In this document: one piece after another, positions 1-64,000 of the stretch
Layout of the letters: each line of letters opens with the position of its first letter
How positions within the stretch are numbered: position 1 is the first letter of the stretch
NCBI GenBank assembly: GCA_963726495.1
Contig: CAVSCP010000006.1
Span: forward strand, 140,312-204,311
Origin: an uncultured Acidimicrobiales bacterium
GTDB taxonomy: Bacteria; Actinomycetota; Acidimicrobiia; Acidimicrobiales; DATKAS01
Length of the DNA stretch: 64,000 bases
Direction: 5' to 3'
Program-made: the position numbers and the translations under genes
Notes under the pieces: model-generated
Databases searched by the model: none
The model's input: the letters and a program-made list of their open reading frames with translations, nothing else
What the model was told of the DNA's origin: nothing

Positions 1-1033
1 CCTTCGCGCCGCCGGCCGTCGCCTCGTCGATCCACGCCGTCACTCGGTCGCGCTCGCCGGTCGAGATGAGCGACGAGACCTCGGTCGCCTCGTCGAGGGG
101 GTCGCCGACGACCAACGTGCGCACCCGTTCGGCCAATCCGGCTGTGAAGTCGTCGACCAGGGCACGTTGGACGTAGATGCGTTGCGTCGAGATGCACGAC
201 TGCCCGGCATGGCTGAACCCGGCCACGCGGATCTTGTCCGCGGCGGACTGCCAATTGCCGTCCGACTCGATGATCACGGGGGCGTTGTTGCCGAGCTCGA
301 GGCCGACCTTCTTGCGGGGCGCCCGGGCCTTGATCCCCCAGCCGACCTCCGGCGAACCAGTGAACGTGATGAGCGCGATGTCGGGATCGTCGACCAGCGC
401 GTTGCCCACCGTGGACCCTCCGCCGGTGACCACATTGAGATGGCCGAGCGGGAGACCACATTCTTGGAGCAACATCTGCGCCAGGGTGATGGCCGAGAAG
501 GGCGTCTGGCTGGCCGGCTTGAGCACGACCGGGCAGCCAGCGGCGATCGCGGGTGCCACCTTGTGGGCGACAAGGTTCAGCGGAAAGTTGAAGGGGCTGA
601 TGGCACCGACGACGCCGATCGGCACGCGGAGGGTGAAGCCGAGCTTCCCCTCACCTGGCGCGGCCGCGTCGAGCGGCACCATCTCCCCGGCAAGCTTCCG
701 GGCCTCGACGGCGGCGAACACGAACGTGCCGACCGCCCGTTCGGCCTCGACCCGCGCCGTACGGATCGGCTTGGCGGCCTCCTCGGCGATGATCCGCGCG
801 AACTCCTCGACCCGCTCCTTCAACCGCGCCGCGGCGGCGTCGAGGATCTCGGCTCGCCGCCACGGCGGCAGCGTCTCGGCAGCCTTGGCGGCCGCGACGG
901 CACGACTGACCTCGGCAGGCCCGCACGCCGGCACGCGGCCCAGCTCGGCTCCGTTGAACGGCGAGTGCACCGCGATCGTGTCGGTGCCGGTGAACTGCTC
1001 GTCGCCGATGGGCACTGCCCTGGTCTCTGACAC
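1..1033 (-). CDS. Aldehyde dehydrogenase family protein (partial; 3' end beyond left edge)
   Basis: Absent from the ORF track because it runs off the window edge. My translation of the minus strand from GTG (1033..1031) gives VSETRAVPIGDEQFTGTDTIAVHSPFNGAELGRV...GKLGFTLRVPIGVVGAISPFNFPLNLVAHKVAPAIAAGCPVVLKPASQTP, the ALDH PFNFP/NAD-binding region. The + ORFs 167..1030 and 177..1073 are antisense shadows. Confidence 0.8.
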   Translation of the reverse strand, partial: MSETRAVPIGDEQFTGTDTIAVHSPFNGAELGRVPACGPAEVSRAVAAAKAAETLPPWRRAEILDAAAARLKERVEEFARIIAEEAAKPIRTARVEAERAVGTFVFAAVEARKLAGEMVPLDAAAPGEGKLGFTLRVPIGVVGAISPFNFPLNLVAHKVAPAIAAGCPVVLKPASQTPFSAITLAQMLLQECGLPLGHLNVVTGGGSTVGNALVDDPDIALITFTGSPEVGWGIKARAPRKKVGLELGNNAPVIIESDGNWQSAADKIRVAGFSHAGQSCISTQRIYVQRALVDDFTAGLAERVRTLVVGDPLDEATEVSSLISTGERDRVTAWIDEATAGGAK

Positions 1034-1069
1034 CGCTCCCCCTCACTCGACGTTCCGTGAATCCCGGAG

Positions 1070-3115: not shown

Positions 3116-4669
3116 GCGTGAGCCGCGGGTCTCATGAGCTGATGGAGCTGCCGCTCACCCCGATCGACTTCCTCCTCCGAGCGCGGCGCCTCTTCCCCGA
3201 TCGAGAGGGTGTGATCCAGCACGAGGGCGGAGCGCGCGCTCGGGTCTTCACCTACGCCGACATGGCCGAGCGCGCCGCGCGCATGGCGCAGGTCCTGCAG
3301 AACGACTTCGACGTCCGGCCCGGCGACCGCGTCGCGTGGCTCTGCGGCAATCGCCACGAGCTGCTCGAGGCCTACTACGGCGTGCTTCTCGCCGGCGCGG
3401 TGCTGCTTCCCCTCAACATCCGCCTCTCGGTGCACGAGCTGCGCGGACAGCTCGACGACAGCCGCGCCTCGGTGCTCGTCCGCGACGCGACGCTCACCGA
3501 GGTCGACCACCCGGTGCGACAGGTCACGCTCGGCGACGAGTGGGAGAGCAGACTGGCCGCACAGCCCCACTCGTGGATCGAGCCCCCGAACGTCGACGAG
3601 CGTGCCGTTGCCGAGATCTTCTACACGAGCGGCTCGACGGGGAAGCCGAAGGGGGCGATGCTCACCCACCGCGGGCTGTACCTCCACGCGGTGCACTCCG
3701 CCCTCACGTTGAACATCAGCGGCCACGACGTCGTGCTGCACACGATCCCGCTCTTCCATGTGAACGGATGGGGCACCCCGCACTACGTGACTGGGCTCGG
3801 CGGCGTGCACGTGATGCTGCCCCGCTTCGACTCCGCCGAGGTGCTCCGCCTCGTCGAGGCCGAGCGCGTCACGCGGCTGTACCTGGTGCCCGCGATGATG
3901 ACCGCGCTGCTCAACGATCCGACGTTCGAAAGCCGCGACCTGACGAGCGTGCAGCAGCTGTCCGTCGGCGGCGCGCCGACACCGCCCGCGCTCCTCGCCG
4001 AGGCCGAGCGCCGATTCGGGTGCGAGTGCATCTGCGGCTACGGGATGACCGAGAGCGGTCCGCAGATGACGAAGGCGATCGACAAGCCCGGCGAGCCCCG
4101 ATCAGCCCGACGCCGCAGCACGACCGGGATGCCGATCCTCGGCGTCGACCTGCGCATCTTCGACGATGACGACCACGAGCTGCCCGTGGGACGGCGTGAC
4201 CGCGGGCGAGATCAGGTCGCGGTCGAACCACGTGATGGCGGGCTACTGGGAGAGCCCCGAAGACACCGAACGCGCGCTCGAAGGCGGGTGGCTGCACACC
4301 GGTGACGTCGCCACGATCTCGCCGGACGGCTTCTTGACGATCGTCGACCGCAAGAAGGACCTCATCATCTCGGGCGGCGAGAACATCAGCTCGGTCGAGG
4401 TCGAGAACGCGCTCACGGAGCATCCGGCGGTGCTCGAAGCCGCAGTGGTCGGCGTGCCCGACGAGCGATGGGGAGAGGTGCCGCGCGCGTTCGTCGCGCT
4501 GCGCTCCGGTTCTGACGCGTCCCCCGACGAGCTGGTCGCGTTCGTGCGTGCGCGCCTCGCGCACTTCAAGGCGCCCAAGGACGTGCGCATCGTCGATGCC
4601 TTGCCCCGCGGCGGCACGGGCAAGGTGCTGAAGACCGTGCTGCGCGAGGCGGACGTAGCGGCGAGCTAG
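3103..4669 (+). pseudogene. AMP-dependent acyl-CoA synthetase/ligase (FadD-like), one frameshift near 4185
   Basis: Tail of ORF 2425..4305 (from MGFMSVS) carries YTSGSTGKPKGAML, GYGMTE and IFDDDDHELP. ORF 4166..4669 continues WDGVTAGEI..MAGYW..WLHTGD..DRKKDLIISGGENISS..PRGGTGKVLK. The join is at ctgcccgtgggac. The 226 aa upstream of 3103 in ORF 2425 overlap the GDPD gene and are not coding. Confidence 0.85.
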
Positions 4670-5074
4670 CTCGCTGGCTTGCCGCACGCCGACCATCCAG
4701 CGCACGCCGAAGCGGTCCTTGCACATGCCCCACTTCGGGGAGAAGAACGTCTCCATCATCGGCTGCGTCGCTTCGCCGCCCTCGGCGAGCGCGTCGTACA
4801 CCTTGTCGGCCGTGGGGATGTCGGGGGCTTCGTGGTACACGTGGATGCCCTCGACGCCCCGGTAGCCGCCGGTCGGGTCGTCCGATCCCATGAGCAGGCG
4901 TCCGTCGATGTTGAGCGCCGCGTGGATGATCAGGTCGGCCTGGTCTGCGGGCACCTGCTCGCCGGGCATGTCACCCATGCGCAGCAACGTGAGGTCGCCA
5001 CCGAAGATCTCGTGATACCGCGTGAACGCGTCACTGCATGACTTGTCGAACATCAGGTATGGGTCGAAGCTCAT
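4666..5074 (-). CDS. VOC / PhnB-like (glyoxalase-fold) protein; 3' end uncertain
   Basis: N-terminal 135 aa of ORF 3911..5074 (MSFDPYLMFDKSCSDAFTRYHEIFGG...FFSPKWGMCKDRFGVRWMV) look like PhnB/3-demethylubiquinone methyltransferase-fold VOC proteins, which normally end just after WMV. The listed frame reads through antisense to fadD. A neighbouring frame ends KPAS-TAG at 4666, so a terminal frameshift or lost stop is likely. Confidence 0.6.
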
Positions 5075-5114: not shown

Positions 5115-6567
5115 TCATCGCGGCTCTCCCGTCTCCGGGTGCGTGTCGATCTGGGCCTTCTGCAGCCGGCCCGAGTAGTCGACGTACACCGTCTTGACCT
5201 GGCTGAACTGCTCGATGCCTCGGGTGCCGGCCTCGCGGAACCCGTTGCCGGTGTGCTTGGTGCCGCCGAACGGAAGCGGGATCTCGGCGCCGATCGTCGG
5301 TGCGTTCACGTACACGATTCCCGTGTCGATGCGGTCGACGAGCTGCAGCGCGGCGTTGATGTCCCGCGTGTAGACCGCGGCCGACAGCCCGTACTCGGAT
5401 GCGTTCACGACGTCGACGGCCTCTCCTCGTCGCCCACCTCGATCACCGACAGCACCGGCCCGAACACCTCTTCGCGGGCGATCGTGTGGTCGGGACGCAC
5501 ACCGGTCAGCACCGTCGGAGCGACGAACGCGCCGCCCTCGCAGCCCTCGACCTCGAGCACGTGCCCTCCGGTCACGACGGTGGCGCCCTCGGCGACCGCG
5601 CGCTCGATCATCCCGATGATGCGCTCAGCCGAGCGGCGATCGATCACGGGACCGACGTCGGTCGTGGCGACCGTCGGATCGCCGAGCACGAGCGCCTCGG
5701 CCCGCTTCGCGACGCGTTCGACGACTGCGGTCGCCACCGCGCGGTGCACCACGAGGCGCGACGTCGAGGTGCAGCGCTGGCCCGACGTGCCGAATGCGCC
5801 GAACAGCGCGCCTTCGACGACGAGGTCGAGGTCGGCATCGTCGAGGACGACCATCGCGTTCTTGCCGCCGAGCTCGAGCGACACGAGGCGGGGGCCGGTC
5901 TCCATCGCCCGTGCCGCGACGAGCCGGCCGGTGGGCACCGAGCCCGTGAACGAGAGCGCTCCGACGCCGGGGTGCACGGCGAGCGCCGCACCGGGCTCGC
6001 CGGCGCCGTGGACGACCTGGAGCAGCGCGGCCGGGATGCCCGCGGTCACCAGCGCGTCGACGAACGCATCGGCGCAGAGCGGCGTGTGCTCGGACGGCTT
6101 CAGCACGATCCCGTTGCCGGCGAGCAGCGCCGGGAAGCACTTCCACGACGGGATCGCGACCGGGAAGTTCCACGGCGTGATCATCCCGACCACCCCGATC
6201 GGCTGTCGCGTCGTCCAAGCCATCTTGTTGGACAGCTCGGAGGCCACCACGCTTCCCAGCGCGGCGCGGCCTTGGCCGGCGACGAACCGACCCATGTCGA
6301 CGGCTTCTTGCACGTCGCCTCCCGCCTCGACGAGCACCTTGCCCGCCTCGCGCGCGACGAGCTCCGCGAGCTGGCCCTTGCGGTCGGCGATGACGTCGGC
6401 AGCGCGGGCGATGAGGTCGGCGCGCGCAGGGATCGGGCGGCGAGCCCACTCCCGCTGCGCCTCGCTCGCCGCGCGACCGCGCGGTCGACGTCGGCCGCGG
6501 TTGCCGCGGTGAACGTGCCCAGCACCTCCGCCGGACGGGCCGGGTTGACGGAATCGAATGTCGCCAT
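5115..6567 (-). pseudogene. Aldehyde dehydrogenase family protein, two frameshifts (about 6475 and 5415)
   Basis: Three fragments: MATFDSVNPARPAEVLGTFTAATAADVDRAVA (within ORF 6181..6840); ORF 5405..6337 with GVVGMITPWNFP, LKPSEHTP, ELGGKNA and GQRCTS; ORF 5115..5408 with NASEYGLSAAVYT and PFGGTKHTGNG. My re-translation across 6475 restores AASEAQREWARRPIPARADLIARAADVIADRKGQLAELVAREAGK. Confidence 0.85.
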
Positions 6568-6617: not shown

Positions 6618-8216
6618 GTGGCAGAGCCGCTCGTCCCGTTCGCGACTCGCTTCGCGCCGACCGCGATGGTGTCGACGATCGACCACCTCGCGACCGAAGC
6701 CGGGCTCGGCGTGCTGCGCGACGGCGGCAGCGCGGCCGACGCGGCGATCGCGTCGAACGCGGTGCTCGCGGTCGTGGCTCCGAACCTCTGCGGGATGGGC
6801 GGCGATCTCTTCGCACTCGTGTCACGAGACGACGAGCCACCAGCGACGCTGAACGCCGCGGGGCGCGCAGGGTCGGGCGCCGATGCCGCCCGGCTCCGAG
6901 CCGAAGGCTTCGTCGAGATGCCGTTCAAGGAAGACATCCGCTCGGTCACGGTGCCGGGCTGCGTCGACGGATGGCTCGCGCTCCACGAGCGGTTCGGGCG
7001 ACTCGGTCTCGATCGCGTGCTCGCTCCCGCGATCGGCTACGCCCGGGACGGGTTCCCCGCGTCGACCATGCTCGCGGCGTCGATCCCGGTGCTCCCTCCG
7101 CGGCCCGGATCGGAGGATCTGCGCGGCCCGACCGGCCAGCGCGCACCTGGCGAGGTGATCCGGAGACCGGGCGTCGCCCGTGCGCTCGACTGCGATCGTC
7201 TCGGACGGACGCGCCGGGTTCTACGAAGGCGAGTTCGGCGAAGGGCTCCTGAAGCTCGGCAACGGCGAGTACGCCGCGGCCGACTTCGAGAGCCCGGGGG
7301 CGCGATGGGTCGACCCGATCAGCGTCGAGGCGTTCGGGCACATCCTTTGGGGGATCCCGCCGAGCTCGCAGGGCTACCTCCTCCTCTCGAGCGCGTGGAT
7401 CGCGGATGGCCTGCCACTTCCTGACGACGCCGACGATCCGCTCTGGGCGCACCTGCTGATCGAGGCGTCGAAGCAGGCGGGCCACGACCGGCCCGCGGTG
7501 CTCGCACGACGCGGCCGACGGCCGCGCGCTCGTGAGCACCGAGCGCCTCGCGCCGCGTCGCGCAAGCGATCGCCGTCGACCGCGCCTCCCATCTCGGTGT
7601 CGGCGCGAGAGTCGGCGACACGACCGCGCTGTGCGTCGTCGACGGGGACGGCGTCGGCGTGTCGCTCATCCAGTCGAACGCCTCGGGCTTCGGGAGCCAC
7701 CTGTTCGAGCCGTCGACGGGCATCAACCTGCACAACCGCGGGCTCGGCTTCTCGGTCGAGGAAGGGCACCCGGCCGGAGTACGCGCCGGGACGGCAACCC
7801 CCACACACGCTCACTCCCGCGATGGTCACCGACCTCGACGGCCGGCTCGCCGCGGTGCTCGGGACGATGGGCGGCGACTCGCAGCCGCAGATCCTCTTGC
7901 AGATCCTGGCCCGCACGTTCGGGCTCGGCGAGTCACCGTCCCGAGCGATCGCAGCAGGACGGTTCCGCCTCTCGGCAAAGGAGCAGACCACGGGGTTCGC
8001 GATCTGGACCGACCCAGCGGGCACCGCCGTCGCCCTCGAAGGGCACGCGCCCTCCGGCATGGGCGGGCGGGCTCACGTGCCCGCGGGCACGAGGTCGCCA
8101 CCACCGCCGCGTTCGACCACGGCTTCGGTCACGCCCACCTCATCGTCGTCGACGACGGACACCTCGCCGGTGCCGCCGACCCGCGCGCCCGAACGGGTCT
8201 CTGCTCCGGGCTGTAG
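6618..8216 (+). pseudogene. ggt: Gamma-glutamyltransferase family protein, at least 5 frameshifts
   Basis: Fragments in ORFs 6618..7424, 7180..8424, 7532..8593 and 7659..8216. Motifs: GGSAADAAIASNAVLAVVAPNLCGMGGDLF, SVTVPGCVDGW, catalytic-Thr region GDTTALCVVDGDGVGVSLIQSNASGFGS, TLTPAMV, LGTMGGDSQPQILLQIL, and C-terminus AAFDHGFGHAHLIVVDDG. Confidence 0.8.
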
Positions 8217-8237: not shown

Positions 8238-9489
8238 GTGGGCATCCTCCTGGTTGGGGCGACAACCGCAGAGGGCGGGACGATCGACGTGCGCATCGAC
8301 GCAGGTCGCATCGCCGCGGTCGGCGCGCTCGAGCGGCTGCCCGACGACGAGGTGCACGACCTCACCGGATACGTCCTGCTCCCGGCGCCCGCCGAACCCC
8401 ATGCCCACCTCGACAAGGCGCTGACCGCGGACCGCGTGGTCAACCGCACGGGCGACCTCCTCGGCGCGATCGAGGCGTGGCACGCTGCCTGGCCCACCCT
8501 CACGAAGGACGACATCGTCCGAGCGCGCCCGCCGCGCGGCGCTGTCCGGTGTCGCGAACGGGCTCACCGCGATCCGCTCGCACGGCGACCTGAGCAGCGT
8601 GATCGGGCTGCGCAGCATGGAGGCGCTCGTCGAGGTCCGCGACGAGCTCCGCGACCTCGTCGACATCCAGGTCGTCGCGCTCATCGCGCTTCCGACTGCG
8701 GGGCTGGCGGGCGCGAACCACCGCGCGCTGCTGCGCGACGCGCTCGACCTGGGCGTCGACGTCGCCGGCGGGTGCCCGCACCTCGACGACGACCGCCTCG
8801 GCTGCCTCGAAGCCTGCTTGGAGGTGGCAGCCGCGGCGGGCCGCCCGATCGACCTCCACATCGACGAGACCCTCGAATCCCGAGGTGCTGGGGCTGCGTG
8901 ACTTCGCCCGCCTCGTCGTCGAGCACCGGCTTCCCCCACGGCGCGACCGCGAGCCACTGCGTGAGCCTCGGCATGCAGGAGGAGATATGTCCAGAAGGCC
9001 GTCGCCGCTGAAGTCGCCGAGGCCGGCATGGCCGTCGTCACTCTCCCCCAGACCAACCTCTTCCTGCAGGGCCACGGCCACGTGACAGGCATGCCTCGCG
9101 GCCTGACCGCGCTCCGGCCCCTGCTCGACGCCGGCGTGACCCTCGCGGGCGGCGCCGACAACGTGCAGGACCCGTTCAACACGATGGGCCGCGCCGACCC
9201 GCTCGAGACCGCTGCGCTGCTGGTGATGGCTGGCCACCTGCTCCCAGACGAGGCCTACGCCGCGGTCAGCGCGGGCGCACGCGCCGCGATGGGTCTCGAA
9301 CCGGTGTCGATCGCGGCTGGCTCGCCGGCCGAGCTGCTCGCGGTGCGAGCCACCACCCTCCGCGAGGCGATCGCCACCGCTCACCCCGACCGGCTCGTCT
9401 ATCACCGTGGCCGCCTCGTGGCCCAGACCCGGTCGACCACCGTCTTCGCCGACACAGTCCTCGCCGACACAGAGCGTTCACATGACTGA
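8238..9489 (+). pseudogene. Amidohydrolase, cytosine-deaminase-like (possible cytosine/creatinine-type deaminase), at least 3 frameshifts
   Basis: ORF 8238..9011 starts MGILLVGATT...LLPAPAEPHAHLDKA (HxH metal site). ORF 8599..8901 has GRPIDLHIDET. ORF 9028..9489 has TLPQTNLFLQG and GGADNVQDPFNTMGRADPLE. This is the layout of CodA-like amidohydrolases. Confidence 0.7.
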
Positions 9490-20429: not shown

Positions 20430-20434
20430 GGCAC

Positions 20435-21258: not shown

Positions 21259-21260
21259 CG

Positions 21261-48976: not shown

Positions 48977-49913
48977 ATGTCGGCCGACCACGTCCACGAC
49001 GCCGAGACGCTCCCTCCCCCGACCTTGCAAGAGGTCAGCGACGGCATCTTCGCCTACGTGCAGCTCGACGGGTCGTGGTGCCTGAACAACACCGGGTTCC
49101 TCGTCGGCCGCGACGGAGTGACCGCGATCGACACCTGCGCGACCGAGGGGCGCACCCGCGCGTTCCTCGACGCGCTGGGTGGAGTGACGAGCGCCCCGGT
49201 GCGGGTCCTCGTGAACACTCACCATCACGGCGACCACACCCACGGCAACTGGCTGCTGCCCGCCGCCGCGGTTGTCGGTCATGAGCTGTGCCGGCACGAG
49301 GTGCTCACCACGGGTTCGATCACGAAGGGCTTGTGGCCGTGGGTCGAGTGGGGCGAGATCGAGGTGTGGCCACCCTTCGTCACGTTCGACGATCACCTCT
49401 CGGTGTGGGTCGACGACCTCGAGGTCTCGTTGCAGCACATCGGGCCCGCCCACACGACGAACGACGTCGTCGCGTGGGTCGCGGATCGCTCGGTGCTGTT
49501 CACCGGCGACCTCGTGTTCAACGGAGGCACGCCGTTCGTCGTGATGGGATCGGTCTCGGGCTCGCTTGACTCGGTCGAGCGGCTGCGCGGGTTCGGCGCC
49601 ACCACCGTCGTGCCCGGGCACGGCTCGGTCTGCGGGCCCGAGGTGTTCGATCAGCTCACTCGTTACTTCGAATTCGTGCAGAGCGTCGCTCGCGGAGGGC
49701 AAGGCCGCAGGGCTGTCTCCCCTCGACGCCGCGCTCCAGACCGACCTGGGCGAGTTCTCCGAGTGGCACGACCGCGAGCGGATCGTCGGCAACCTGTACC
49801 GCGCGTACGCCGAGCTCGACGGCGCCGAGCGGGGCGCGCAGATCAACGTCGTCGCAGCGCTCACCGACATGGTCGCCTACAACGGCGGCCAGCCGCTTCG
49901 TTGCCTCGCGTGA
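48977..49913 (+). pseudogene. MBL-fold metallo-hydrolase, frameshift near 49690
   Basis: ATG 48977 in ORF 48926..50803 (VNTHHHGDHTHGN, GPAHTTNDV, FTGD, VVPGHG). The C-terminus is in the ORF 49566..49913 frame (LAEGKAAGLSPLDAAL...). Confidence 0.8.
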
Positions 49914-53041: not shown

Positions 53042-54660
53042 GTGGACGGCGGGAACTCGAACAGCCACGCGTGCTCGAAGTACTTGTTGCCGTTGTCGGT
53101 CACGCGAGCAACACCCTGCGGACGGGCGCGCAGCAGCGCGCTGTTCACCGCTTCGCATTGCCCTTCGAACGTGCGATAGGTGCCCGCCCACACGTACCAG
53201 ATGGTGTGATCACCCGCGCGCTTCAGCACCTCCTGCGCGATCGCGTCGGGATCGGCCGCGGCGTTGCGATCCTCGTAGTCGACCCAATCGACCCGGTCGG
53301 TCGGGCCGAGCGTCGGGTACGCGAGCGTGACGACGTCGCCGCGCAAGTGGCCGCGTGCCGGAGGGCCCGAGCTGGTCGGGGCAGTAGAGGACGATGTCGC
53401 CGGGCTTCGCGTTCGCGTTGATCGCCGGCACGACCTCCGCGCCGAGCTGCGTGCGCTCGACCGTGACGTTGCGGTAGCCGCCCAGCAGGCCGCCCACCAC
53501 GAGCAGGCCGACGATCGGCGAGCCGCAGCCAGTCCGCGAGGAACCGCGTGAGGCCAGCTGCGGCAGCGAGCAGCAGGAACGGCACGAACACTGCCGCGTA
53601 CCGCGACTCGTACGTGCCCGAGGTGACGAACACGGCCGCGGTGCCGAATGCGAGCGTGAGACCGGTGACCGCCAGCTCGGTGCGCACCTGAGGCACGGTG
53701 CCGAGGTCGAGGCCGATGTGGCGGCGGTCGCGGGCGACCCCGAACAGCGCGAGCAGCACCAGTCAACGCGAGGATGAACCCGACGATCTGTCCCTCGGCG
53801 CCGATGCCGCCGAGGTCGTTCGCGGTGATCGTGAGGATCGCGGACGGGCGGATCGGCCTTGCCCACGGCGAGCCAGTGTGGGCGGCTTGGTACGCGAACG
53901 ACGGTAGCCACGGCACGAACGCGAGGCTGCCGACGGCGACGGCGACAAGCAGGTGTACGGCCCGTCGCCGCGTCACACGGGAACGCAGCCGCAACGCGAG
54001 CAGCACCACGGTCGCCGCGACGAGGTACAGCGCCCAGTAGTGGGTCAGGACGAGCGCGCCAGTGATGAGTGCGACGGCGACGAGCCAACCGATGCCGTCG
54101 TCCTCGAGGGCGTTCATCACGCAGAGGTAGCCCGCGAGCGCGAGCACGACGACCATCGAGTACATCCGGGCTTCGGTCGCGTAGCGGAAGGCCCAGGGGT
54201 TCAGCGCGAGGAGGACAAGCGCGAGCCACGCGACCGTTCTTCCCCCGACCCGTCTCCCCGCGAGCCACATGAGCGGCAGCGCGAGGACGGCGAAGACGCC
54301 CGACAGCGCCCGCACCGAGCGGTCGCTCTCGCCGAACACCGCCATCCATCCGTGGAGGAGCCAGTAGTAGAGCGGCGGATGGCCGTCGTGACGCAGCGCT
54401 TCGGGGATGTCGCCGACGGGAAGCTTGGCGATGTTGACCGACAACGCCTCGTCGAGCCAGAGGTGCGACTGGGTCCAGAAGCGGAGCACGACTCCGATGG
54501 CGACGGCCACGCCGATGGCGATCCAGACGGCGACGATCCAGCCGTGAGCAGGGGATGTGGTGGGGTCTCCGGCAGGCTCGGCAGGGGGCGCCGTGGCCTG
54601 GGTGTTCGTGACCGCCACGGCGCGCAACGGTAGCCTTCGCACCTGTTGCGGCCCAATCAT
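53038..54660 (-). pseudogene. GT39/ArnT-like GT-C glycosyltransferase, about 3 frameshifts
   Basis: ATG 54660 in ORF 53038..54771: LWLDEALSVNIAKLP..HDGHPPLYYWLLHGWMAVFGESDRSVRALSGVF..LNPWAFRYATEARMYS. The middle is in ORFs 53223..53759 and 53210..54349. The soluble C-terminus returns to the first frame. Confidence 0.7.
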
Positions 54661-54731: not shown

Positions 54732-56233
54732 ATGGCCGACACCGAGACGCCGACAGCGGCGACAGACACACCGCCCGGCCCAGAGGCGGGCGAGGTCGTG
54801 ATCATCGGCGCGGGGCCTGCGGGCCTCACCGCCGCGTGGGAGCTGACCAAGCGCGGTCGCACTGCAACGGTGCTCGAGGCCGACTCGGTCGTCGGTGGCA
54901 TCAGCCGCACCGTCGAGCGCGACGGCTGGCGCTTCGACATCGGCGGCCACCGCTTCTTCACGAAGGTCCCCGAGGTCGAGGCCGTGTGGCACGAGATCCT
55001 CGCCGGACGAAGACTTCCTGCTGCGCCCGCGCCTGAGCCGCATCTACTACCAGAGCAAGTACTTCGACTACCCGCTCCGGGCGATGAACGTGCTCAAGAC
55101 GCTCGGCATCCGCGAGTCGTTCCTCTGCGGATGCTCGTACATCGGCGTGCGCATCAAGAAGCCGAAGGACCAGACGACGTTCGAGGGCTGGGTCGCGGCG
55201 CGGTTCGGGTGGCGCCTTTACCGCATGTTCTTCAAGAGCTACACCGAGAAGGTCTGGGGCATCCCCGCCGACAAGCTGCCCGCCGACTGGGCCGCGCAGC
55301 GCATCAAGAACCTCTCGCTTCGGCAAGGCCGTGATCAACGCGATCCTCCCGAAGCGCAACCAGAAGGAGATCACCTCCCTCATCGAGGAGTTCCAGTACC
55401 CGAAGTACGGCCCGGGGATGATGTGGGAGGTGTGCACCGACAAGGTCGAGGCCGCGGGCACGAAGGTGCTGATGGAGACCGTCGTGACCCAGGTCGAGCA
55501 CAAGGACGGTCGGGCGGTCGCCGTCACTGCCGAGACCGAAGGCGTCGCCACCACGTACGACGCGACCGCGGTCATCTCGTCGATGCCGATGAGCGCGCTC
55601 CTGCGGGCGATGGATCCGCCGCCGCCGGCCGAGGTGCTCGCCGCGGCCGATGCGCTCAAGTACCGCGACTTCATCACCGTCGCGCTCGTCGTCCCCGACA
55701 AGTACTCGTTTCCTGACAACTGGATCTACGTGCACTCGCCCGACGTCATCGTCGGTCGCATCCAGAACTTCCGGAACTGGTCGCCGTACATGGTGAAGCC
55801 CGGCTACACCTGCCTCGGGCTCGAGTACTTCGTGAACGTCGGCGATCGCCTGTGGGAGATGGCCGACGATGACCTCGTGAAGCTCGGTGCGTCAGAGCTC
55901 GCGCACATCGGCCTCGTCGACGCCGATGTGGTCGAGGCCGGATACGTCGTGCGCACCCCCAAGGCGTACCCGGTGTACGACGGCGGCTACGAAGCCAACG
56001 TCAACGTCATGCGCGAGTGGCTCGAGCAGCACGCGACCAACGTGTATCCGGTCGGCCGCAACGGCATGCACAAGTACAACAACCAGGACCACTCCATGTT
56101 CACCGCGATGCTGAGCGTCGAGAACATCCTCGGCGCCCATCACGACACCTGGTCGGTGAACGTCGAGCAGGAGTACCACGAGGAGAGCTCCCACTCCGCC
56201 GGCACCGGACGATCGGCGCCAGTCACCGGATGA
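54732..56233 (+). pseudogene. NAD(P)/FAD-dependent oxidoreductase (amine-oxidase / UDP-galactopyranose-mutase-like fold), 2 frameshifts
   Basis: ORF 54732..55334 (VVIIGAGPAGLTAAWEL..EADSVVGGISRT). ORF 54895..55716 (YYQSKYFDYPL..FFKSYTEKVWG). ORF 55331..56233 (QYPKYGPGMMWE...VGRNGMHKYNNQDHSM). Confidence 0.7.
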
Positions 56234-56237: not shown

Positions 56238-57435
56238 ATGACCGCCACCACGGCCGCCGACCTCGGTTCGGGCCATGCCGGGTCGGTCAACCGTCATTTC
56301 CCGTGCTTCGACGGGCTCCGCGCGATCGCCGCGATCCTGATCGTGATGCACCACTCGGGCTTCGCGTCGGGCGACACGTTCCGCTACGGCTGGGGCGCGT
56401 ACGTCGGCCGCATGGACATCGGGGTGCCGATCTTCTTCGGCCTCTCCGGCTTCCTGCTCTTCCGGCCCTACGTGGCCGCGCAGTTCGCGGGCACGCCAGC
56501 CGATCGCCACCGCCGACTTCTGGACTCGCCGCGTGCTCCGCATCTTCCCGGCCTATTGGGCGGCGCTCTTCCTGCAGGTGATCCTCGGCGGGATCGTCGT
56601 GCACAGCTTGTTCGGCCTGCTCGTCTACATGAGCCTCACGCAGATCTACTTCATGCGGTTCGTGATCGGCGCGATCACGCAGTCGTGGAGCCTCGCGACC
56701 GAAGTGAGCTTCTACGTCTTCCTTCCCTTCTGGGCGAGGTGGATGCGCAAGCTCGCGGGCACGAGCACGATCAACGTGCAGGCGATGCGCCTGCTCGGCT
56801 GGCTCGGCGTGCTCGTGGTGCTCTCGTACGTGTGGCGTGGCTTCATCTACTGGGTCGACCCGAGCTGGAAGCCCCTCACCTACTACTGGCTCCCTTCGCT
56901 GATCGAGCTGTTCTGCGTCGGGATGGCGCTCGCGGTGATCTCCGCGTGGGCCGATCACCGCTCGGTCGTGCGCGAGATGGGCGACGCGATCGGACGTCAC
57001 CCCGCGATCTGCTGGGCGATCGCCCTCGGCCTCTTCTGGTTCGTGTCGACGCAGCTCGGCCTGCTGCTCGGCCTGTTCCGCGCGAGCGACTCGCGAGAGA
57101 TGCTGCGCCAGACGATCTACGGACTCGTCGCGTTCTTCCTGATGCTGCCAGCGGTCTTCGGCAACCAGCGTCAGGGGCTCATCCGGCGCTTCCTCTCCCA
57201 TCGGTTCATGGTGTTCATGGGATCGATCTCGTACGGCGTGTACCTCTGGCACCAGTTCTTCATCACCCACATCCAGGAGTGGTTCGGATGGGGTCAGTGG
57301 GAGGCGCCGTTCCCGCAGCTCTTCCTCATGACGATGGTGCTCAGCAGCATCACCGCGTGGATCAGCTTGAAGTTCCTCGAACGCCCGCTGATGGGACAAC
57401 GCAAGCGGGTGCTCGCTCTCATCGGGAAGGCCTGA
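56238..57435 (+). pseudogene. Acyltransferase family 3 (OafA-like) membrane protein, frameshift near 56500
   Basis: ORF 56238..57791 N-terminus (FDGLRAIAAILIVMHHSGF..MDIGVPIFFGLSGFLLFRP). ORF 56533..57435 (LRIFPAYWAAL...QSWSLATEVSFYVFLP...ISYGVYLWH). Confidence 0.75.
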
Positions 57436-57438
57436 GCC

Positions 57439-58143
57439 GTGAGGATGAGCCGGCGGGCGTCGATGCGATTGAACGACGCGCTCGACCGCTGGGTCCCTCC
57501 GGCGCTTCGCGACTCGTGGATCTTCGCCCGGGCCGCGAGGTCGATGTACGGCGATCTCCCGATCCCGATCGACGAGCTGAAGGAGCGTGCGTTCACGCTC
57601 TCGCCCGAGGAGTACGGCGACTTCTACCGAAGCCTGCAGACGCGGTTCGAGCAGGGCGACACCGACCTCACACCTGCGTCGCTCGACTCCGTCGTTGCAT
57701 CGGTTCTCGGTCAGTCGGTGCTCGACGTCGCGTGTGGCAAGGGCTACCTCGCGTTCAGTGCTGGCGAGCGACCACCGCGTCGTCGGTGTAGACGTCGCGC
57801 TCGCGACCGGCGACCGAGCGATACGCCACCGCGGCGCGATCCTCTGCGAGGCGAACATCGAGCAGCTGCCCTTCCGCGACGACTCGTTCGACACGGTCGT
57901 GTCGACGCACACGCTCGAGCACGTGCAGCACCTCGGCAGCGCGCTCGCCGAGCTCCGCCGAGTCGCCGCCAAGCGTCTCGTCGTGGTCGTGCCGCGGCAA
58001 CGCCCGTATCGGGTCACGTTCAACCCGCACATCCACTTCTTCCCGTACGAGTTCTCGCTTCTCGCGTGGACGGGCACCGACCGTCCCTACCGGTGCGAGC
58101 TCGCGGGGGAGACTGGCTGTACGTGGAGGAGCAGACAGGTTGA
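57439..58143 (+). pseudogene. Class I SAM-dependent methyltransferase, 2 frameshifts
   Basis: ORF 57439..58143 (..VLDVACGKGYLA) and ORF 57587..58261 (VVGVDV..LPFRDDSFDTVVSTHTLEHV..LRRVAAKRLVVVVP). The last codons return to the first frame. Confidence 0.7.
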
Positions 58144-58869
58144 GCACCCTCGTGGTCGTGCCGGCGTACCAAGAGGAACAGGCGCTTCCGGGCACACTCA
58201 AGGAGCTGCGCGACGTCGTGCCCGAGCTCGACGTCCTCGTCGTGGACGATGGCTCCCGTGACGCGACCGCGAAGGTCGCGGCGGCCGCCGCCGATGTGAC
58301 GGGTGGCCCGCCTGCCGTTCAACCTGGGCGTGGGCGCCGCAGTGCGCACAGGACTCCGCTATGCGGTCGACCACGGCTACCAACGGGTGGTCGTCGTCGA
58401 TGCGGACGGCCAGCACGACCCGGCCACGATCGCGACCTTGCTCGCGCGCGCTCGACGACGGCGCCGACATGGTCATCGGCTCACGGTTCGCCGCTCGGCG
58501 GGATCGTCGTTCGAGGTCGGGCGCACCCGCGGCCGAGCGATGAAGTCGCTGCACCGTGTCGTTCGCTGGCAGACCGGCCAGTCGTTCACCGACACGACCT
58601 CGGGGTTCCGGGCCTTCGACGCGCCGGTCGTCGCGATGCTCGCCCGCGACTACCCCGTCGAGTACCTCGCCGACACGGTCGAGGTGCTCCTCATGGTGTG
58701 CCGGGCCGGCTACAAGGTCGTCGAGGTGCCGGTGGCGATGCGCACCCGCGCCGGCGGGCAGCCGAGCGCTCGACATCTGCAGCTCGCCTACAACTACCTG
58801 CGCTTGATGATCGGGATCGTCGCGTCGGCATCGCGCAAGGCGATCCCACCGCCGCCAGGCAGGCCATGA
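58140..58869 (+). pseudogene. GT2 glycosyltransferase (polyprenol-phosphate sugar synthase-like), 3 frameshifts
   Basis: ORF 58140 (LVVVPAYQEEQALPGTLKEL..LVVDDGSRD). ORF 58303 (NLGVGAAVRTGLRYA..VVVDADGQHDP..SGFRAF). ORF 58361 (LDDGADMVIGSRF). Confidence 0.75.
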
Positions 58870-58879
58870 GGGACAACTC

Positions 58880-59254
58880 GTGAGCACCCGCGCCCACGTC
58901 CTGCTCATCGTCGTCGCCGGCGTGAGCGTCGGCTACATCTTCTGGCTGCTCCGCCAGCACCAGCTGCGCTCGAAGTACGCGCTGCTGTGGCTCGGCATCG
59001 GCGTCGTGCTCGTGCCCCTCGCGGTGTTCCCCGGCGTGCTGAACACGGTCGCCGACTGGCTCGGCGTCGCCTACCCGCCCGCCGCGTTCCTGTTCCTCGC
59101 CGTCGGGTTCTTGTTCTTCGTCGTCGTGCACTTCTCGTGGGAGCTCTCCCGGCTCGAGCGGCGCGTGCGCACGCTCGCCGAAGAGATCGCCCTGCTCCGA
59201 GCCGAGGGAGGGGCAGGGGCTAGCGTCTCTGCCGATGAGCACCCCGAAGGCTGA
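58880..59254 (+). CDS. DUF2304-like small membrane protein
   Basis: Intact 124-aa ORF with 3-4 TM segments (YALLWLGIGVVLVPLAVFP..FLFLAVGFLFFVVVHFSWELSRLE), placed directly after a GT2 gene as is typical for this family. Confidence 0.7.
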   Translation: MSTRAHVLLIVVAGVSVGYIFWLLRQHQLRSKYALLWLGIGVVLVPLAVFPGVLNTVADWLGVAYPPAAFLFLAVGFLFFVVVHFSWELSRLERRVRTLAEEIALLRAEGGAGASVSADEHPEG

Positions 59255-60582
59255 CGCCGCGCTCATTTGCGCGCTGGGTTGCTCTGATCACCGCCGTCGG
59301 GCTCGTCGGCCGCGTGCTGTACGTCGTGCTCGTGACACGCCACCAGACGGTGTGGGGCGACGCGTACTTCTACCACGAGAGCGCGAACCTCATCGCCGAC
59401 GGCAAGGGGTTCATCAACCCGATCGACTGGATCGAGAACCACGTCCGCATCCAGGCCGCCGACCATCCGCCGCTCTACCTCTTGTACCTCGCGGGATGGT
59501 CCATCCTCGGCGTCACGAGCACGACCGGACAGCTGCTCGTCTCGACGTTGCTCGGTGCCGCCACGATCGCGGTGACCGCCTACGCGGGCAAGGAGATCGC
59601 TGGGCCGAGAGTCGGCCTCATCGCCGCCGGTCTCGTGTGCATCTACCCGAACGTGTGGGCACCGGACGGCATGCTCCTGTCGGAGACGATGGCGATCCTG
59701 ACGGTTGCGCTGACGATGCTCCTCGCGTACCGGTTCTGGCACCGTCCGAACCTCGCCCGCGCCGCGTGGATGGGACTCGCAGTCGGGCTGGCGACGCTCT
59801 CTCGCTCCGAGCTCGTCCTGCTGTCGGTGCTCGTGATCGTGCCGCTCGTACTGCTGGTGCGCACCGTCTCGTTGTGGCGGAGGGTCGGGTGGATCGGCGC
59901 GGCTGCCGCCGCGTGCCTCGCGGTCGTCGGCCCGTGGGTCGTGTTCAACATGACGCGCTTCGACCATCCGGTGTACCTCTCGGCCGGCTACGAGATCACG
60001 CTCTCGACCGCGACGTGTGATCTCACCTGGTACGGCGAGTTCACCGGCTACTGGAACATCCAGTGCCCGATCCAGGTGCTCCAACGACACGGGGTCGACA
60101 GCCAGGGCACCGATCAGTCGGTGCTCGCGAAGCTCTTCCGTGACGACTCGATCGACTACATCCGCAACCACGAGAAGCGGCTCCCCTACGTGGTGCTCGC
60201 GCGGTGGGGCCGCATCACCGGCCTCTACAAGCCGCTGCAGCAGACGTCTCTCGACCACTTCCCGGAGGGTCGCAACATCTGGGTCGCCAGAGGCGCGCTC
60301 GCGGGCTGGTACCTCGTCGCTCCGTTCGCGATCGGCGGCGCGCTCGTGCTGCGTCGCCGCCGCATCCCGGTCTTCCCGCTGCTCGGCCCGCCGATCGTGG
60401 TCTGGATCGCGGTCACGATCACGTTCGCCACGACTCGTTATCGCGCTTCGGCCGAGGGGGCGCTGTGCCTGCTCGCGGCGGTCGGCGTCGACGCGCTCAT
60501 CGGCCTGTACGAACGGCTCCGCGACGATCCCGAGGACGTGCCGCCGGTCGACGAGCCCGAGCGCGAGCTCGTCTCTGCCTGA
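59235..60582 (+). pseudogene. GT39/ArnT-like GT-C glycosyltransferase; N-terminus uncertain (probable frameshift near 59250)
   Basis: ORF 59314..60582 (GDAYFYHESANLIADGKGF..AADHPPLYLLYLAGW..). The same frame is open back to 59239 without a good start, whereas ATG 59235 is one frame off. Confidence 0.7.
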
Positions 60583-61412: not shown

Positions 61413-62609
61413 GTGGCCGACACCCGCGCCGACACCCTGGTCAAGCTCGGTGACCTCGCCGCGTCGGCGGGCCTCCGACGCATCCACATGCTCGCGTGGC
61501 GCGACCTCGCGGACGTCGAAGCGGGCGGTTCCGAGCTCCACGCGACCACGGTCGCTCGGCTGTGGGCCGAGGCCGGCATCGAGGTCACGATCCGCACGTC
61601 CTACGCGCAAGGCCACCCACCGGAGAGCAACCGGGACGGCGTGCGCGTCATCCGCAAGGCGGGGCGCTACCTCGTCTTCCCCCGCGCGATCTTCAGCGAG
61701 GCGACTGGCCGGCACGGCCAGCGCGACGGGCTCGTCGAGATCTGGAACGGGATGCCGTTCTGGTCGCCGCTGTGGGCGACCGGGCCGCGCGTGGTGTTCC
61801 TGCACCACGTGCACGGTGCGATGTGGAAGATGGTGCTGCCGCCGAACCTCGCCGCGTTCGGCGAGACCGTCGAGAAGCGCATCGCGCCGCCGATCTACCG
61901 CCGCAGCCGCATCATCACGCTCTCTCAGTCGTCGCGCGACGAGCTCATCCACGATCTCAAGCTGAAGCCCTCGCGGGTGTCGGTCGTGCCGCCCGGCATC
62001 GACCCGCGCTTCACCCCAGCTCCAGAAGGCGGCACCGAGAAGTCGCGCACCCCACTCGTCGTCGCGGTCGGCCGCCTCATGCCGGTGAAGCGGTTCGACG
62101 AGCTCATCAAGGTGATGGCCGAGGTGCGGGCCACCCATCCCGACGTCGAGCTCACGATCGTCGGCGACGGCGCCGAGCGCGAGCACCTCGAGGCGCTGAT
62201 CGACGACCTCGACGCGTCCGACTGGGTCTCGATGCCGGGCCGGCTGTCCGACGACGCGCTCGTCGAGCTGTATCGCCGCGCGTGGGTGCTCGCCAGCGCG
62301 TCGGCCGCCGAGGGCTGGGGCATGACCGTCACCGAGGCGGCCGCGTGCGGCACGCCCGCGGTCGTCACCGACATCGCCGGCCACCGCGACGCGGTGCAGT
62401 CCGGGGTCACCGGGGTGCTCTCCGCCGACATGGCCGCGCTCGCCGCGCGACATCGCACGCGTGCTCGATGATCACGACACGCGTGCAGCAGATGAGCGCA
62501 GCCGCGCTCGCGTGCGGGCGAGCTCACGTGGGAGGCGACCGCGACGGGAACGCTCGCCGCACTCGCCGGCGAGGCAACTCGACTCCGACGCCCCGGGCGC
62601 GCCAGCTGA
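61413..62609 (+). pseudogene. GT4-family (GT-B) glycosyltransferase, 2 frameshifts near 62440-62500
   Basis: ORF 61413..62471 (GGSELHATTVARLW..VGRLMPVKRFDELI..ASAAEGWGMTVTEAAACGTPAVV = EX7E region). The original frame reopens and ends at TGA 62607..62609, overlapping the next ATG. Confidence 0.75.
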
Positions 62610-64000
62610 TGCCCGCCCGCTGGCGCGGGCGTTGCCAGCACATCGCCCTTGCCCTCGTCGCGTACGTCCCGCTGCTGTTCACGCATCGCGGCGAGGTCGG
62701 CGCGGACACCAAGACGTACCTCTACCTCGACCCTGGCCGCCTGCTCGCCAAGGCGCCGTACATGTGGGACTCGGGCACCGGGCTCGGCACGGTCACCCAC
62801 CAGACGCTCGGCTACCTGTTCCCGATGGGCCCGTACTACTGGCTCATGCAGACCCTCGGCTTCCCCGACTGGGTCGCGCAGCGCATCTGGCTCGGCACGA
62901 TCCTGTTCGCCGCAGGCGCGGGAGTGCTGTTCCTCATGCGAGCGATGGGCTGGCGCGCATCGGAGCCCACGCTCGCGCGTGGGATGGTCGTTGCCGCCGC
63001 GGTCTACATGCTCTCGCCCTACGTCCTGGACTACGCGGCGCGCATCTCGGTGATCCTGCTGCCGTGGGCCGCGCTGCCGTGGCTCATCGGCATGGCGATG
63101 CGCGCGGCACGCGAGGGCGGATGGAAGTGGCCCGCGTGGTTCGCGGTCGTGATCGCGCTCGTCGGCGGCGTGAACGCGACCGCGCTCCTCTTCGCGGGCA
63201 TCGGCCCGGTGCTGTGGCTCGTCTACGCGATGTTCGTCACGAAGGAGATCGAGGTGCGGCGCGCGATGGCCGCGATCGGTCGCATCGGTGCGCTCACGCT
63301 CGGCGTGTCGTTCTGGTGGATCGCGGGGCTGTGGGCGCAGGGCAAGTACGGCATCCCGATCCTCCGCTACACCGAGACCTACGAGACGGTCGCGAAGGTC
63401 TCGAACGCGCCCGAGCTGCTGCGGGGCCTCGGCTACTGGTTCTTCTACGGCGACGACAAGCTCGGCCCCTGGATCGAGCCGAGCGTCGCGTACACCCAGC
63501 ACCTCTGGCTGATCGGGGCGGGATACCTCCTCGCGATCGGCGGGCTGCTCGCCGCCGGCGCGCTGCGCTGGAAGCAGCGGGGCTTCTTCGTCGTGCTCCT
63601 CGCCGTCGGCACGCTGATCGCGGTCGGCGCGAACCCCTTCGATCATCCGTCGCCGTACGGATCGATCTTCTCGAGGTTCGCGCACATGGACCTCGGGCTC
63701 GCGCTGCGATCGACGCCGCGGGCTGTCCCTCTCATCATCCTGTCGCTGGCCGTGCTGCTCGGCGCCGGCACGCGCGCCCTCGCCCGTTGGCGCCCGACGC
63801 TCGGCCTCGGTGTCGCGATCACGGCGGTCGCTGTCGCGGTGGTCAACCTGCCGCCGCTCTTCACGGGCCAGATGGTGGCGAACAACCTGCAGCGACCCGA
63901 GGACATCCCCGCGTACTGGCAGCAAGATGCCAGCTACCTGCAGTCGCAGGGCGACGCGACCCGCGTGCTCGAGCTGCCCGGGCTCGGACTTCGCGTCCGT
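62609..64000 (+). CDS. AftD-like alpha-(1->3)-arabinofuranosyltransferase family (DUF3367) membrane protein, partial (continues beyond right edge)
   Basis: Absent from the ORF track because it has no stop in the window. My translation from ATG 62609: MPARWRGRCQHIALALVAYVPLLFTHRGEVGADTKTYLYLDPGRLLAKAPYMWDSGTGLGTVTHQTLGYLFPMGPYYWL..., multi-TM. A frameshift is possible near 63975. Confidence 0.7.
   Translation, partial: MPARWRGRCQHIALALVAYVPLLFTHRGEVGADTKTYLYLDPGRLLAKAPYMWDSGTGLGTVTHQTLGYLFPMGPYYWLMQTLGFPDWVAQRIWLGTILFAAGAGVLFLMRAMGWRASEPTLARGMVVAAAVYMLSPYVLDYAARISVILLPWAALPWLIGMAMRAAREGGWKWPAWFAVVIALVGGVNATALLFAGIGPVLWLVYAMFVTKEIEVRRAMAAIGRIGALTLGVSFWWIAGLWAQGKYGIPILRYTETYETVAKVSNAPELLRGLGYWFFYGDDKLGPWIEPSVAYTQHLWLIGAGYLLAIGGLLAAGALRWKQRGFFVVLLAVGTLIAVGANPFDHPSPYGSIFSRFAHMDLGLALRSTPRAVPLIILSLAVLLGAGTRALARWRPTLGLGVAITAVAVAVVNLPPLFTGQMVANNLQRPEDIPAYWQQDASYLQSQGDATRVLELPGLGLRVR

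Follow-up and report, generated by a model that had tools for sequence, protein, structure and literature searches.

Genomes in genuine decay, such as that of Mycobacterium leprae and those of recently host-restricted symbionts and pathogens, contain many interrupted genes interleaved with intact ones. Their frameshifts are accompanied by nonsense mutations, deletions and often an expansion of insertion sequences (IS), selection is relaxed, and pseudogenes are shared by descent. The window analysed here, by which we mean the whole 64-kb stretch of DNA from a soil Acidimicrobiales genome, resembles such genomes in its large share of interrupted genes and in their interleaving with intact ones, but nonsense mutations, deletions, IS expansion, relaxed selection and inherited pseudogenes were all not seen in it.

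A second described system is the metagenome-assembled genome (MAG) built from Nanopore reads alone. As in the window, genes in these MAGs are fragmented by 1-nt indels, and frameshift-aware correction restores them; the window's own closest relatives are MAGs and assemblies of this type (Cuscó et al. 2021, PMC8103633; Microflora Danica, MFD, PMC12313526). Frameshift density in Nanopore-only MAGs is higher at low coverage (PMC8103633, PMC12313526), and among the related Nanopore-only contigs it varies widely. For the MFD catalogue, built from Nanopore reads alone with Flye and a single Medaka round, the authors looked for Nanopore-associated sequencing errors. They report 73 MAGs of low coding density (<75%), a feature linked to lower coverage and to long homopolymers at low GC (PMC12313526). 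Among near-identical public bacterial genomes, pseudogene counts vary with platform, assembler and coverage, and a raised count is a marker of poor assembly (Cooley & Wright 2024, PMC11017572). The quality proxy in that study is internal stops, whereas the window has frameshifts only and zero internal stops. The window also differs from textbook Nanopore error, which consists of deletions in homopolymers, in being insertion-dominated and mostly non-homopolymer.

Judging from sequence comparison, the frameshifts of the window are very probably errors in the consensus of a metagenome assembled from long reads alone. The affected genes would then be intact in the organism, since the breaks would be single-base assembly errors.

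A reference-free codon-usage Viterbi path, with six frames and a non-coding state, divides the whole window into 124 segments with 87-88 same-strand frame switches. Comparison with at least two relatives covering each site gave 94 window-private indels of a length not divisible by 3, including 72 +1 insertions and 16 1-nt deletions, and 61 frame switches have a private indel of matching sign no more than 45 nt away. Both tests, namely privacy to the window and a rise in coding score on removal, were passed by 71 indels (62 +1 insertions, three +2 insertions and six 1-nt deletions), while six were borderline (4679, 13550, 17056, 58444, 59256 and 63977). Repair leaves 3-5 residual switches, located at 30.7-31.7 kb and around 58.5 kb. 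The overall total is about 75-82 frame breaks, or about 1.2 per kb, in agreement with an initial annotation, made from the sequence alone, that had counted 60-80 switches at roughly one per kb. Its figure of more than 40 of about 60 genes affected was too high; a manual count based on gene calls in the relatives gives about 34 of about 59 (Table 1).

Table 1. Interrupted genes of the window, with the indels assigned to each (window positions)
Gene product	Coordinates	Strand	Indels	Remarks
fadD-type acyl-CoA ligase	3142..4669	+	+1 insertion 4182	private vs L001, L002, L003
glyoxalase	4673..5074	-	+1 insertion 4679	private vs L001, L002; coding score borderline
aldehyde dehydrogenase	5139..6567	-	1-nt deletions 5424, 6472	
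gamma-glutamyltranspeptidase	6618..8216	+	+1 insertions 7190, 7503, 7563, 7774, 8056, 8077	
amidohydrolase	8238..9489	+	+1 insertions 8518, 8870, 8917, 8985	
ABC permease (BPD_transp_1)	10300..11170	+	+1 insertion 10453	
407-aa hypothetical protein	11205..12426	+	+1 insertion 12173	
luciferase-like monooxygenase	13551..14489	-	+1 insertions 13691, 13833, 14088; 13550 borderline	private vs L004, L005
rhodanese	14510..15346	+	1-nt deletion 14524, +1 insertion 15069	
RES-domain toxin	16475..17012	+	+1 insertion 16514	
MDMPI-family protein	17030..17768	+	+1 insertion 17056, borderline	
peptidase M20	19162..20430	-	+1 insertions 19981, 20253	
CrtI-like amine oxidase	21260..22809	+	+1 insertions 21476, 21695, 21922, 22146, 22477; 1-nt deletion 22627	
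molybdopterin-binding large subunit	23347..25645	-	+1 insertions 24006, 24508, 24845	complete Pfam domain set once repaired
2Fe-2S small subunit	25646..26120	-	+1 insertion 26081	
FAD-binding medium subunit	26100..26947	-	+1 insertion 26344	
amidase	27037..28232	+	1-nt deletion 27258, +1 insertion 28178	
luciferase-like monooxygenase	30049..31071	-	+1 insertions 30300, 30673, 30684	about 2 residual breaks
amidohydrolase	31072..32097	-	+1 insertions 31804, 31848	1 residual break near 31729
fused 2Fe-2S + molybdopterin large subunit	32098..34701	-	+1 insertions 32743, 33817, 34241	
SBP_bac_5 paralogue 1	37440..39184	+	insertions 37728 (+1), 38096 (+2), 38427 (+1)	
SBP_bac_5 paralogue 2	39480..41182	+	insertions 39918 (+1), 39966 (+1), 40622 (+2, GA)	
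SBP_bac_5 paralogue 3	41397..43144	+	insertions 41843, 41947, 42086, 42476, 42582 (+2, GA), 42843, 43009	
Opp/Dpp-type permease	43208..44165	+	+1 insertion 43722	private vs L010, short-read L012
metallo-beta-lactamase fold protein	48977..49913	+	+1 insertion 49693	private vs 5/5 relatives
membrane protein	51941..53050	-	+1 insertion 52502	private vs 5/5 relatives
PMT_2 glycosyltransferase	53051..54660	-	+1 insertions 53349, 53515, 53763	private vs 5/5 relatives; full PMT_2 match once repaired
amine oxidase 2	54732..56233	+	+1 insertions 55001, 55317	private vs 4/4 relatives
acyltransferase	56238..57435	+	+1 insertion 56495	private vs 4/4 relatives incl. short-read L015
methyltransferase	57436..58143	+	+1 insertion 57752, 1-nt deletion 58105	
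GT2 glycosyltransferase	58140..58883	+	+1 insertion 58301; 58444 borderline	
GT39-like membrane glycosyltransferase	59235..60582	+	+1 insertion 59256, borderline	private vs 4/4 relatives
GT4 glycosyltransferase	61413..62471	+	+1 insertion 62443	private vs 4/4 relatives
large membrane protein, running off window	62451..64000	+	+1 insertion 62486; 63977 borderline	

Individual genes that had been singled out earlier could be examined at base level. The switch placed at about 4185 in fadD is an extra base at 4182, a surplus C in CTGCC[C]GTGG within a stretch where homologues keep ELPWDG invariant, and after repair the protein can be aligned over its full length with the 96%-identical P0001. Those placed at about 5415 and 6475 in the aldehyde dehydrogenase gene are 1-nt deletions at 5424 and 6472. 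The gamma-glutamyltranspeptidase gene, credited with at least five switches, has six breaks; the CrtI-like gene, credited with at least seven, has six switches that yield seven fragments. The SBP paralogues, the Mo-enzyme subunit genes and the glycosyltransferases are broken as reported: breaks number 3, 3 and 7 in the three paralogues, 3, 1, 1 and 3 in the four subunit genes, and 3 in PMT_2, 1-2 in GT2 and one each in GT39-like and GT4. The glyoxalase ORF extends to 3911 because the insertion at 4679 sits four codons ahead of its stop.

The even distribution claimed for the breaks stands insofar as their spacing is near-Poisson, with a variance-to-mean ratio of 0.56 in 8-kb bins, but there is mild over-dispersion at 2-4 kb (1.4-1.6). 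The widest indel-free gap is 5,971 nt (p=0.04), and indel placement is indifferent to gene function. The region at 50.8-51.9 kb is not an IS element but a variable AbiEi-type cassette, the sole variable insert.

Relatives sequenced in different ways carry the main evidence. Five Nanopore-only contigs (L004, L005, L010, L014 and L021), all Flye and Medaka soil assemblies from MFD, with L014 and L021 being MFD MAGs, share 92-97% identity with the window across alignment blocks. None of the window's frameshifts is common to any of the five, even at 96% identity. Each has private indels of its own (0.8-1.6 per kb), at sites differing from those of the window. In the short-read contigs (L002, L006-L009, L012, L013 and L015), about 29 kb of aligned sequence contained no uncompensated coding frameshift, against about 27 in the corresponding parts of the window (p=1.5e-8). 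A seven-way alignment of 21.85-24.65 kb contains ten 1-nt indels, all ten of them singletons: six in the window, three in L005, one in L004 and none in the four short-read contigs. The indels of the CrtI-like gene are singletons of the window in this alignment, occurring in neither the two Nanopore nor the four short-read contigs.

The broken gene calls fall in different genes from contig to contig. The Mo large subunit is whole in L004 (705 aa) and broken into 275+177+313 in L005, the amidase is whole in L005 and broken in L004, and a 459-aa amidohydrolase unbroken in the window has nine private indels in its L004 copy and six in its L005 copy. Other MFD contigs reach a density of 2.2 frame switches per kb, while the window has 1.36 and the short-read loci have 0.3-0.7. 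Across the Nanopore-only and short-read relatives, indel frequency goes with how a contig was sequenced and assembled and not with phylogeny.

Repair in silico restores the genes. Once 77 indels are removed, only 30 same-strand frame switches are left instead of 87-88, a number equal to the gene-boundary baseline. Repaired proteins match Pfam domains end to end (SBP_bac_5 1-361/368, MoCoBD_2 19-283/283, Peptidase_M20 2-205/206 and PMT_2 2-158/160). The repaired window has no premature stops; in-frame stops occur at gene ends only.

We infer the platform and coverage of the window from its relatives and from the source pattern of the record: ten of its proteins lie on a single 520,235-bp contig present in both NCBI and ENA, a pattern shared with the MFD MAG contigs. 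The sequence most likely comes from Nanopore reads, a Flye assembly and one Medaka round, as for the relatives, and the contig probably had modest coverage and no polishing by accurate reads. Under these conditions, spurious single-base indels, mainly insertions, would enter the consensus at a rate of about 1.2 per kb and at essentially random positions, and each would divide a good gene into two ORFs of different frame.

Some indels recur, which counts against consensus error in this simple form. Two SBP paralogues carry an identical 2-nt GA insertion at homologous positions (40622 and 42582), and L004 and L005, which were independently assembled, have two indels in common as well as a local cluster of 17 indels in 1.4 kb. 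The recurrent indels imply that the error process is partly context-dependent or that a few events are real. It is possible, although on balance unlikely, that the errors arose mainly from mixing of co-occurring strains or paralogues, or from strain-specific DNA modification, and not from simple low coverage; this is a refinement of the consensus-error explanation rather than an opponent of it. Such a source would fit the recurrent indels and the cluster, the uneven error density along a single contig (L001 0.46 per kb, L011 1.24 per kb), the mild over-dispersion at 2-4 kb and a weak excess of CpG-creating insertions (43/72, with 40% expected). However, no k-mer or motif enrichment at the indel sites survives multiple testing, placement is uniform at the 8-kb scale, and most site contexts are unremarkable. 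That no sequence motif explains the sites also tells against consensus error in general.

If the frameshifts were instead real, a very recent burst of pseudogenisation would have inactivated more than half of the strain's genes. The indels are truly in the deposited sequence, the mixture of broken with intact genes is like that of a decaying genome, and gene conversion of a real mutation could have placed the 2-nt insertion in two paralogues. We nevertheless consider such a burst very improbable. No lesion is held in common with even a 96%-identical relative, and a separate burst would be needed for each Nanopore contig while all short-read contigs escaped. As first described, there are no in-frame stops (after repair), no large deletions relative to the relatives and no IS elements; no transposase homology was found in the window, which argues against IS expansion. 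Substitutions relative to close relatives are 5-8 times as frequent at codon position 3 as at position 2, and this ratio is equal downstream of breaks and elsewhere, so selection is not relaxed.

The indel spectrum points the same way. In bacteria, spontaneous indels favour deletions and cluster in runs. Insertions outnumber deletions 65:6 in the accepted set of 71 (p=1e-13), with the same bias in the five Nanopore relatives (62:32), and this excess, together with the mostly non-homopolymer sites, makes the spectrum unlike that of spontaneous mutation, the reverse of its known bias. The preference of the initial annotation for assembly indel errors over decay is supported by every test applied: private singletons, a different indel set in each Nanopore-only relative, clean short-read contigs, repair, the lack of nonsense mutations and selection.

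Miscalled homopolymer lengths, of the kind known from 454, Ion Torrent or older Nanopore chemistry, deserve very little credence as the main source of the breaks. A minority of insertions do lengthen a short run (CC to CCC at 4182, GG to GGG at 22146). Yet the inserted base is unlike both neighbours in 50 of the 72 private +1 insertions (69%, with 49% expected; p=5e-4), only 6 of the 72 fall in runs of at least three, and 13 of the 16 private 1-nt deletions removed a base without an identical neighbour. Homopolymer length spectra are the same in the window as in its relatives, whether Nanopore or short-read. The initial annotation had called for the indels to be tabulated against homopolymer runs; this was done, and most insertions lie outside them. 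Its description of the errors as homopolymer-type or uncorrected long-read holds for the second term and not for the first. Consensus error on the Nanopore platform must itself accommodate a spectrum that is not the classic one.

Scarcely credible is the idea that the insertions are real and tolerated, arising at a very high per-strain +1 rate and being corrected at the transcript or translation level. It would explain selection on the repaired frame, but it needs short-read assemblers to miss or purge the alleles systematically, and nothing indicates that they do. Programmed ribosomal frameshifting or other recoding read through by the cell, which the nearly uniform direction of the shifts (+1 base in the DNA) might suggest, is practically negligible, as the sites lack conservation among orthologues and paralogues alike, no slippery motif is common to them, and the frame of the same genes is continuous in short-read assemblies.

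The relevance of these results is one of quality control only. ORF boundaries, pseudogene labels and split-gene calls in the window are unreliable until it is polished or corrected in a frameshift-aware manner, and the same presumably holds for the whole 520-kb contig and its MAG. Gene counts, coding density, completeness estimates and protein clusters taken from the record are distorted, and unusual ORFs, gene fragments or fusions in the window should first be checked against the 77 indel sites listed in Table 1. The protein collection already holds truncated proteins of sister assemblies. Separately, the insertion-biased, non-homopolymer and sometimes recurrent spectrum departs from the usual description of Nanopore error and is of minor methodological interest.

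We are highly confident that the frame breaks in the genes of the window are indel errors of the assembly, of a type other than homopolymer error. The frameshift pattern is not a biological feature; the value of the finding lies in its warning, and every ORF-level call in the window must take the indel sites into account.

The frameshifts were counted with and without references. The reference-free test employed a Viterbi path through six frames and a non-coding state, with codon log-odds from a few intact genes. Because the genome is 70% G+C (65-72% throughout the window), the codon-position signal is very strong. The path comprised 124 segments with 87-88 same-strand frame switches, a density of 1.36 per kb. 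Under the same model, short-read contigs of related organisms gave 0.3-0.7 switches per kb, the ordinary gene-boundary density, and related long-read contigs gave 0.46-2.24.

For the reference-based test, pairwise alignments were projected to window coordinates, and an indel was called private when it differed from all covering relatives, with at least two required. A GTDB scan found relatives at 94-96% nucleotide identity. The related contigs jointly span nearly the entire window, with L001, L002 and L003 covering 1-13.5 kb, L004, L005 and four short contigs (L006-L009) covering 12.9-33.5 kb, L010-L013 covering 34-56 kb, and L014-L016 and L021 covering 48-64 kb. This yielded 94 window-private indels of a length not divisible by three: 72 +1 insertions, 16 1-nt deletions, 4 two-base insertions, 1 two-base deletion and one 16-nt intergenic insertion. 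A private indel of the right sign lay within 45 nt of 61 frame switches; the remaining switches mark the boundaries between genes.

Some parts of the window had no more than two sister contigs as references, and events were therefore polarised by asking whether deleting each one from the window increased the local coding score. A repair using any indel backed by one close relative created additional breaks (28946 and 29308 among them) and was dropped in favor of this filter, which turns down such sites, the break there being in the relatives instead of the window. The filter accepted 71 events (62 +1 insertions, 3 +2 insertions and 6 1-nt deletions). Six further events are supported by all relatives but score as borderline owing to their position close to a gene end or to the edge of the window. 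Once these 77 events were removed, same-strand switches fell to 30 and in-frame stops occurred at known gene ends only, with 3-5 residual breaks at 30.7-31.7 kb and near 58.5 kb.

Both counts confirm that the frameshifts described in the initial annotation are real in the sequence. Its specific examples all check out, with one exception: in the CrtI-like gene 6 switches were counted, against the stated minimum of 7. The number of affected genes, put there at over 40, is nearer 34 of ~59. This tally was made manually, using synteny to the gene calls of the relatives, because automated gene picking in the repaired window missed several genes. Indel spacing is near-Poisson, with a variance-to-mean ratio of 0.56 in 8-kb bins and 1.4-1.6 in bins of 2-4 kb; a single stretch of 6 kb is free of indels (p=0.04).

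The spread of the indels over the assemblies is the decisive result on error versus biology. In a seven-way alignment of 2.8 kb, each of the ten 1-nt indels occurred in one sequence only: the window had six, L005 three and L004 one, and the four short-read contigs in that alignment had none. Window-wide, each of the five close Nanopore-only contigs (L004, L005, L010, L014 and L021) carries 0.8-1.6 private indels per kb, and the genes whose calls are broken in one of these relatives are whole in the window or in another of them. The private indels of the eight short-read contigs (L002, L006-L009, L012, L013 and L015) are intergenic, at gene ends, or in compensating pairs a few bases apart; these contigs contain no persistent coding frameshifts over ~29 kb, versus ~27 in the window (p=1.5e-8). 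A scan of JGI metagenome contigs returned no hits for the deletion allele at 22627; it also returned none for the wild-type allele, the positive control, though the JGI contigs L006, L007 and L009 carry it.

The contigs behind this comparison have the following origins. L014 and L021 are titled as MFD…bin MAGs, from the Nanopore-only Microflora Danica soil catalogue, whose authors examined their own low-coverage MAGs for Nanopore-associated errors (PMC12313526). L001, L003-L005, L010 and L011 belong to ENA assemblies with neighbouring accessions and Flye-style contig names. Spurious pseudogenes are well documented in Nanopore MAGs, where they are worse at low coverage and are removed by frameshift-aware correction (PMC8103633), and assembly-derived pseudogenes vary with platform, assembler and coverage (PMC11017572). 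Frameshift density is also uneven within one contig: L001 and L011 both derive from contig_82051 of ERZ25039602, and the L001 part has 0.46 switches per kb with every gene full length, while the L011 part, located 30 kb beyond it, has 1.24, with SBP (SBP_bac_5 solute-binding protein), ECH and lactamase genes split.

Real recent pseudogenisation of the window genes is very improbable. Indels of 1-2 nt are the sole lesions in these genes; no nonsense codons were found after repair, no large deletions against the relatives, and no transposase in the window. The Pfam matches of the repaired proteins run end to end, and the repaired fadD aligns over its full length with intact homologues. The best matches of this fadD-type protein are uncultured Acidimicrobiales from soil metagenomes, at 96% and 95% identity on short ENA contigs and 88% on a 190-kb contig, all of which keep the gene order of the window. 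Ten intact window proteins have letter-for-letter copies in the protein collection. Substitutions relative to close relatives are 5-8 times as frequent at the third codon position as at the second, equally so downstream of the frameshifts. It follows that purifying selection has acted on the repaired frame through practically the entire divergence. Spontaneous indels in bacteria are deletion-biased and clustered in mononucleotide runs. The accepted indels comprise 65 insertions versus 6 deletions (p=1e-13), and the Nanopore relatives are biased likewise (62 insertions versus 32 deletions). The preference for assembly errors over decay, already voiced from the first reading, is thus strongly supported.

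Homopolymer error or compression, one of the two types proposed in the initial annotation, is ruled out by base context and run-length spectrum. The inserted base is unlike both neighbours in 50 of the 72 +1 insertions, versus 49% expected if random (p=5e-4), the deleted base has no identical neighbour in 13 of 16 deletions, and the homopolymer run-length spectrum of the window is that of the short-read relatives. CpG-creating insertions are in weak excess (43/72 versus 40% expected). No k-mer motif or methylation-site enrichment around the insertions survives multiple testing, including the strongest candidate, CTGC/GCAG (10 observed versus 2.6 expected). The indel rate of 1.2e-3 per base might be about that of a low-depth consensus.

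Two observations do not fit purely random error. A GA dinucleotide is inserted at 40622 and 42582 in the same context, CTCGTCGC[GA]GTCGTACAAGG, at the homologous site of SBP paralogues 2 and 3. The insertion is absent from L010 and L011, and at that site paralogue 1 has GTCAAGTCG. This suggests either a miscall that depends on context or a true variant whose AAG codon lacks one A. The orthologue of a 1.4-kb amidohydrolase gene, unbroken in the window, carries 9 private indels in L004 and 6 in L005. Two of the indels breaking it are common to both contigs, which were assembled from different samples, and this hints at recurrent context-specific errors. Given the recurrent GA and the common pair, the error process is partly context-dependent; a very small number of events could be real. 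Error hot spots at this amidohydrolase are not the same in the window as in L004 and L005.

Features in the window and their occurrence in related contigs
Position in window	Feature	Related contigs	Reading
5,074-5,139	Glyoxalase and ALDH genes with no Aminotran_3 gene between them	L001 as window; Aminotran_3 gene present in L002 and L003	Real gene-content difference between strains
16,113-17,012	RES-domain toxin and Xre/MbcA/ParS-type antitoxin gene pair; spurious insertion at 16514 in the toxin gene	Named via synteny with Pfam-annotated gene calls of L005	
18,235-34,701	Region rich in nitrogen-heterocycle and amide catabolism genes	Annotation from relatives' Pfam calls only	Resembles a utilisation island for purine, pyrimidine or creatinine
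28,229-29,608	Amidohydrolase gene, 459 aa	Orthologue in L004 and L005	
32,086-32,127	No O-methyltransferase gene	327-aa O-methyltransferase gene in L005	Real gene-content difference between strains
37,440-47,414	Three tandem SBP_bac_5 paralogues (~81% nucleotide identity to one another), then a complete Opp/Dpp-type ABC transporter (two permeases, two ATPases)		
38597-40077, then 44003-45211	SBP copy and second permease	Joined directly in short-read contig L013	Probably a collapsed-repeat misassembly in L013
46,250-46,325	TSTPTTS-type low-complexity repeat, C-terminal tail of first ABC ATPase	10 nt length difference versus L010	Apparently natural variation in repeat length or an artefact of alignment; left out of the frameshift count
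50,832-51,887	~1-kb cassette, AbiEi_4-domain (antitoxin-type) gene, minus strand, split between frames	Not in nearest relatives L010, L014, L021; in more distant L011, L017, L018, L020, L030 at 70-74% nucleotide identity	
50832-50877 and 51842-51887	Two copies of a 46-nt palindrome bracketing the cassette, GATTGGTAGGTCGGGG…CCCCGACCTACCAATC, 17-bp perfect stem	Same flanking palindromes in L018	
60074-60583	Acidimicrobiales glycosyltransferase gene	95% identical to L034 10,005-10,514	L034 contig end looks chimeric

The putative utilisation island holds two xanthine-dehydrogenase-family Mo-enzyme sets, a creatininase, an N-carbamoyl-amino-acid-type CN hydrolase, an M20 peptidase, an amidase, three amidohydrolases, RidA and a phosphoribosyltransferase. 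An IS element at 50.8-51.9 kb was considered and rejected, as the insert is the AbiEi_4-domain cassette and shares no homology with the transposase that L011 carries at the corresponding position. L034 is a 46%-GC contig (contig_74433) of a public MAG, MFD05942.bin.3.50, labelled 'Nitrospiraceae', and the end that matches the window is a ~520-nt stretch of 68-70% GC.
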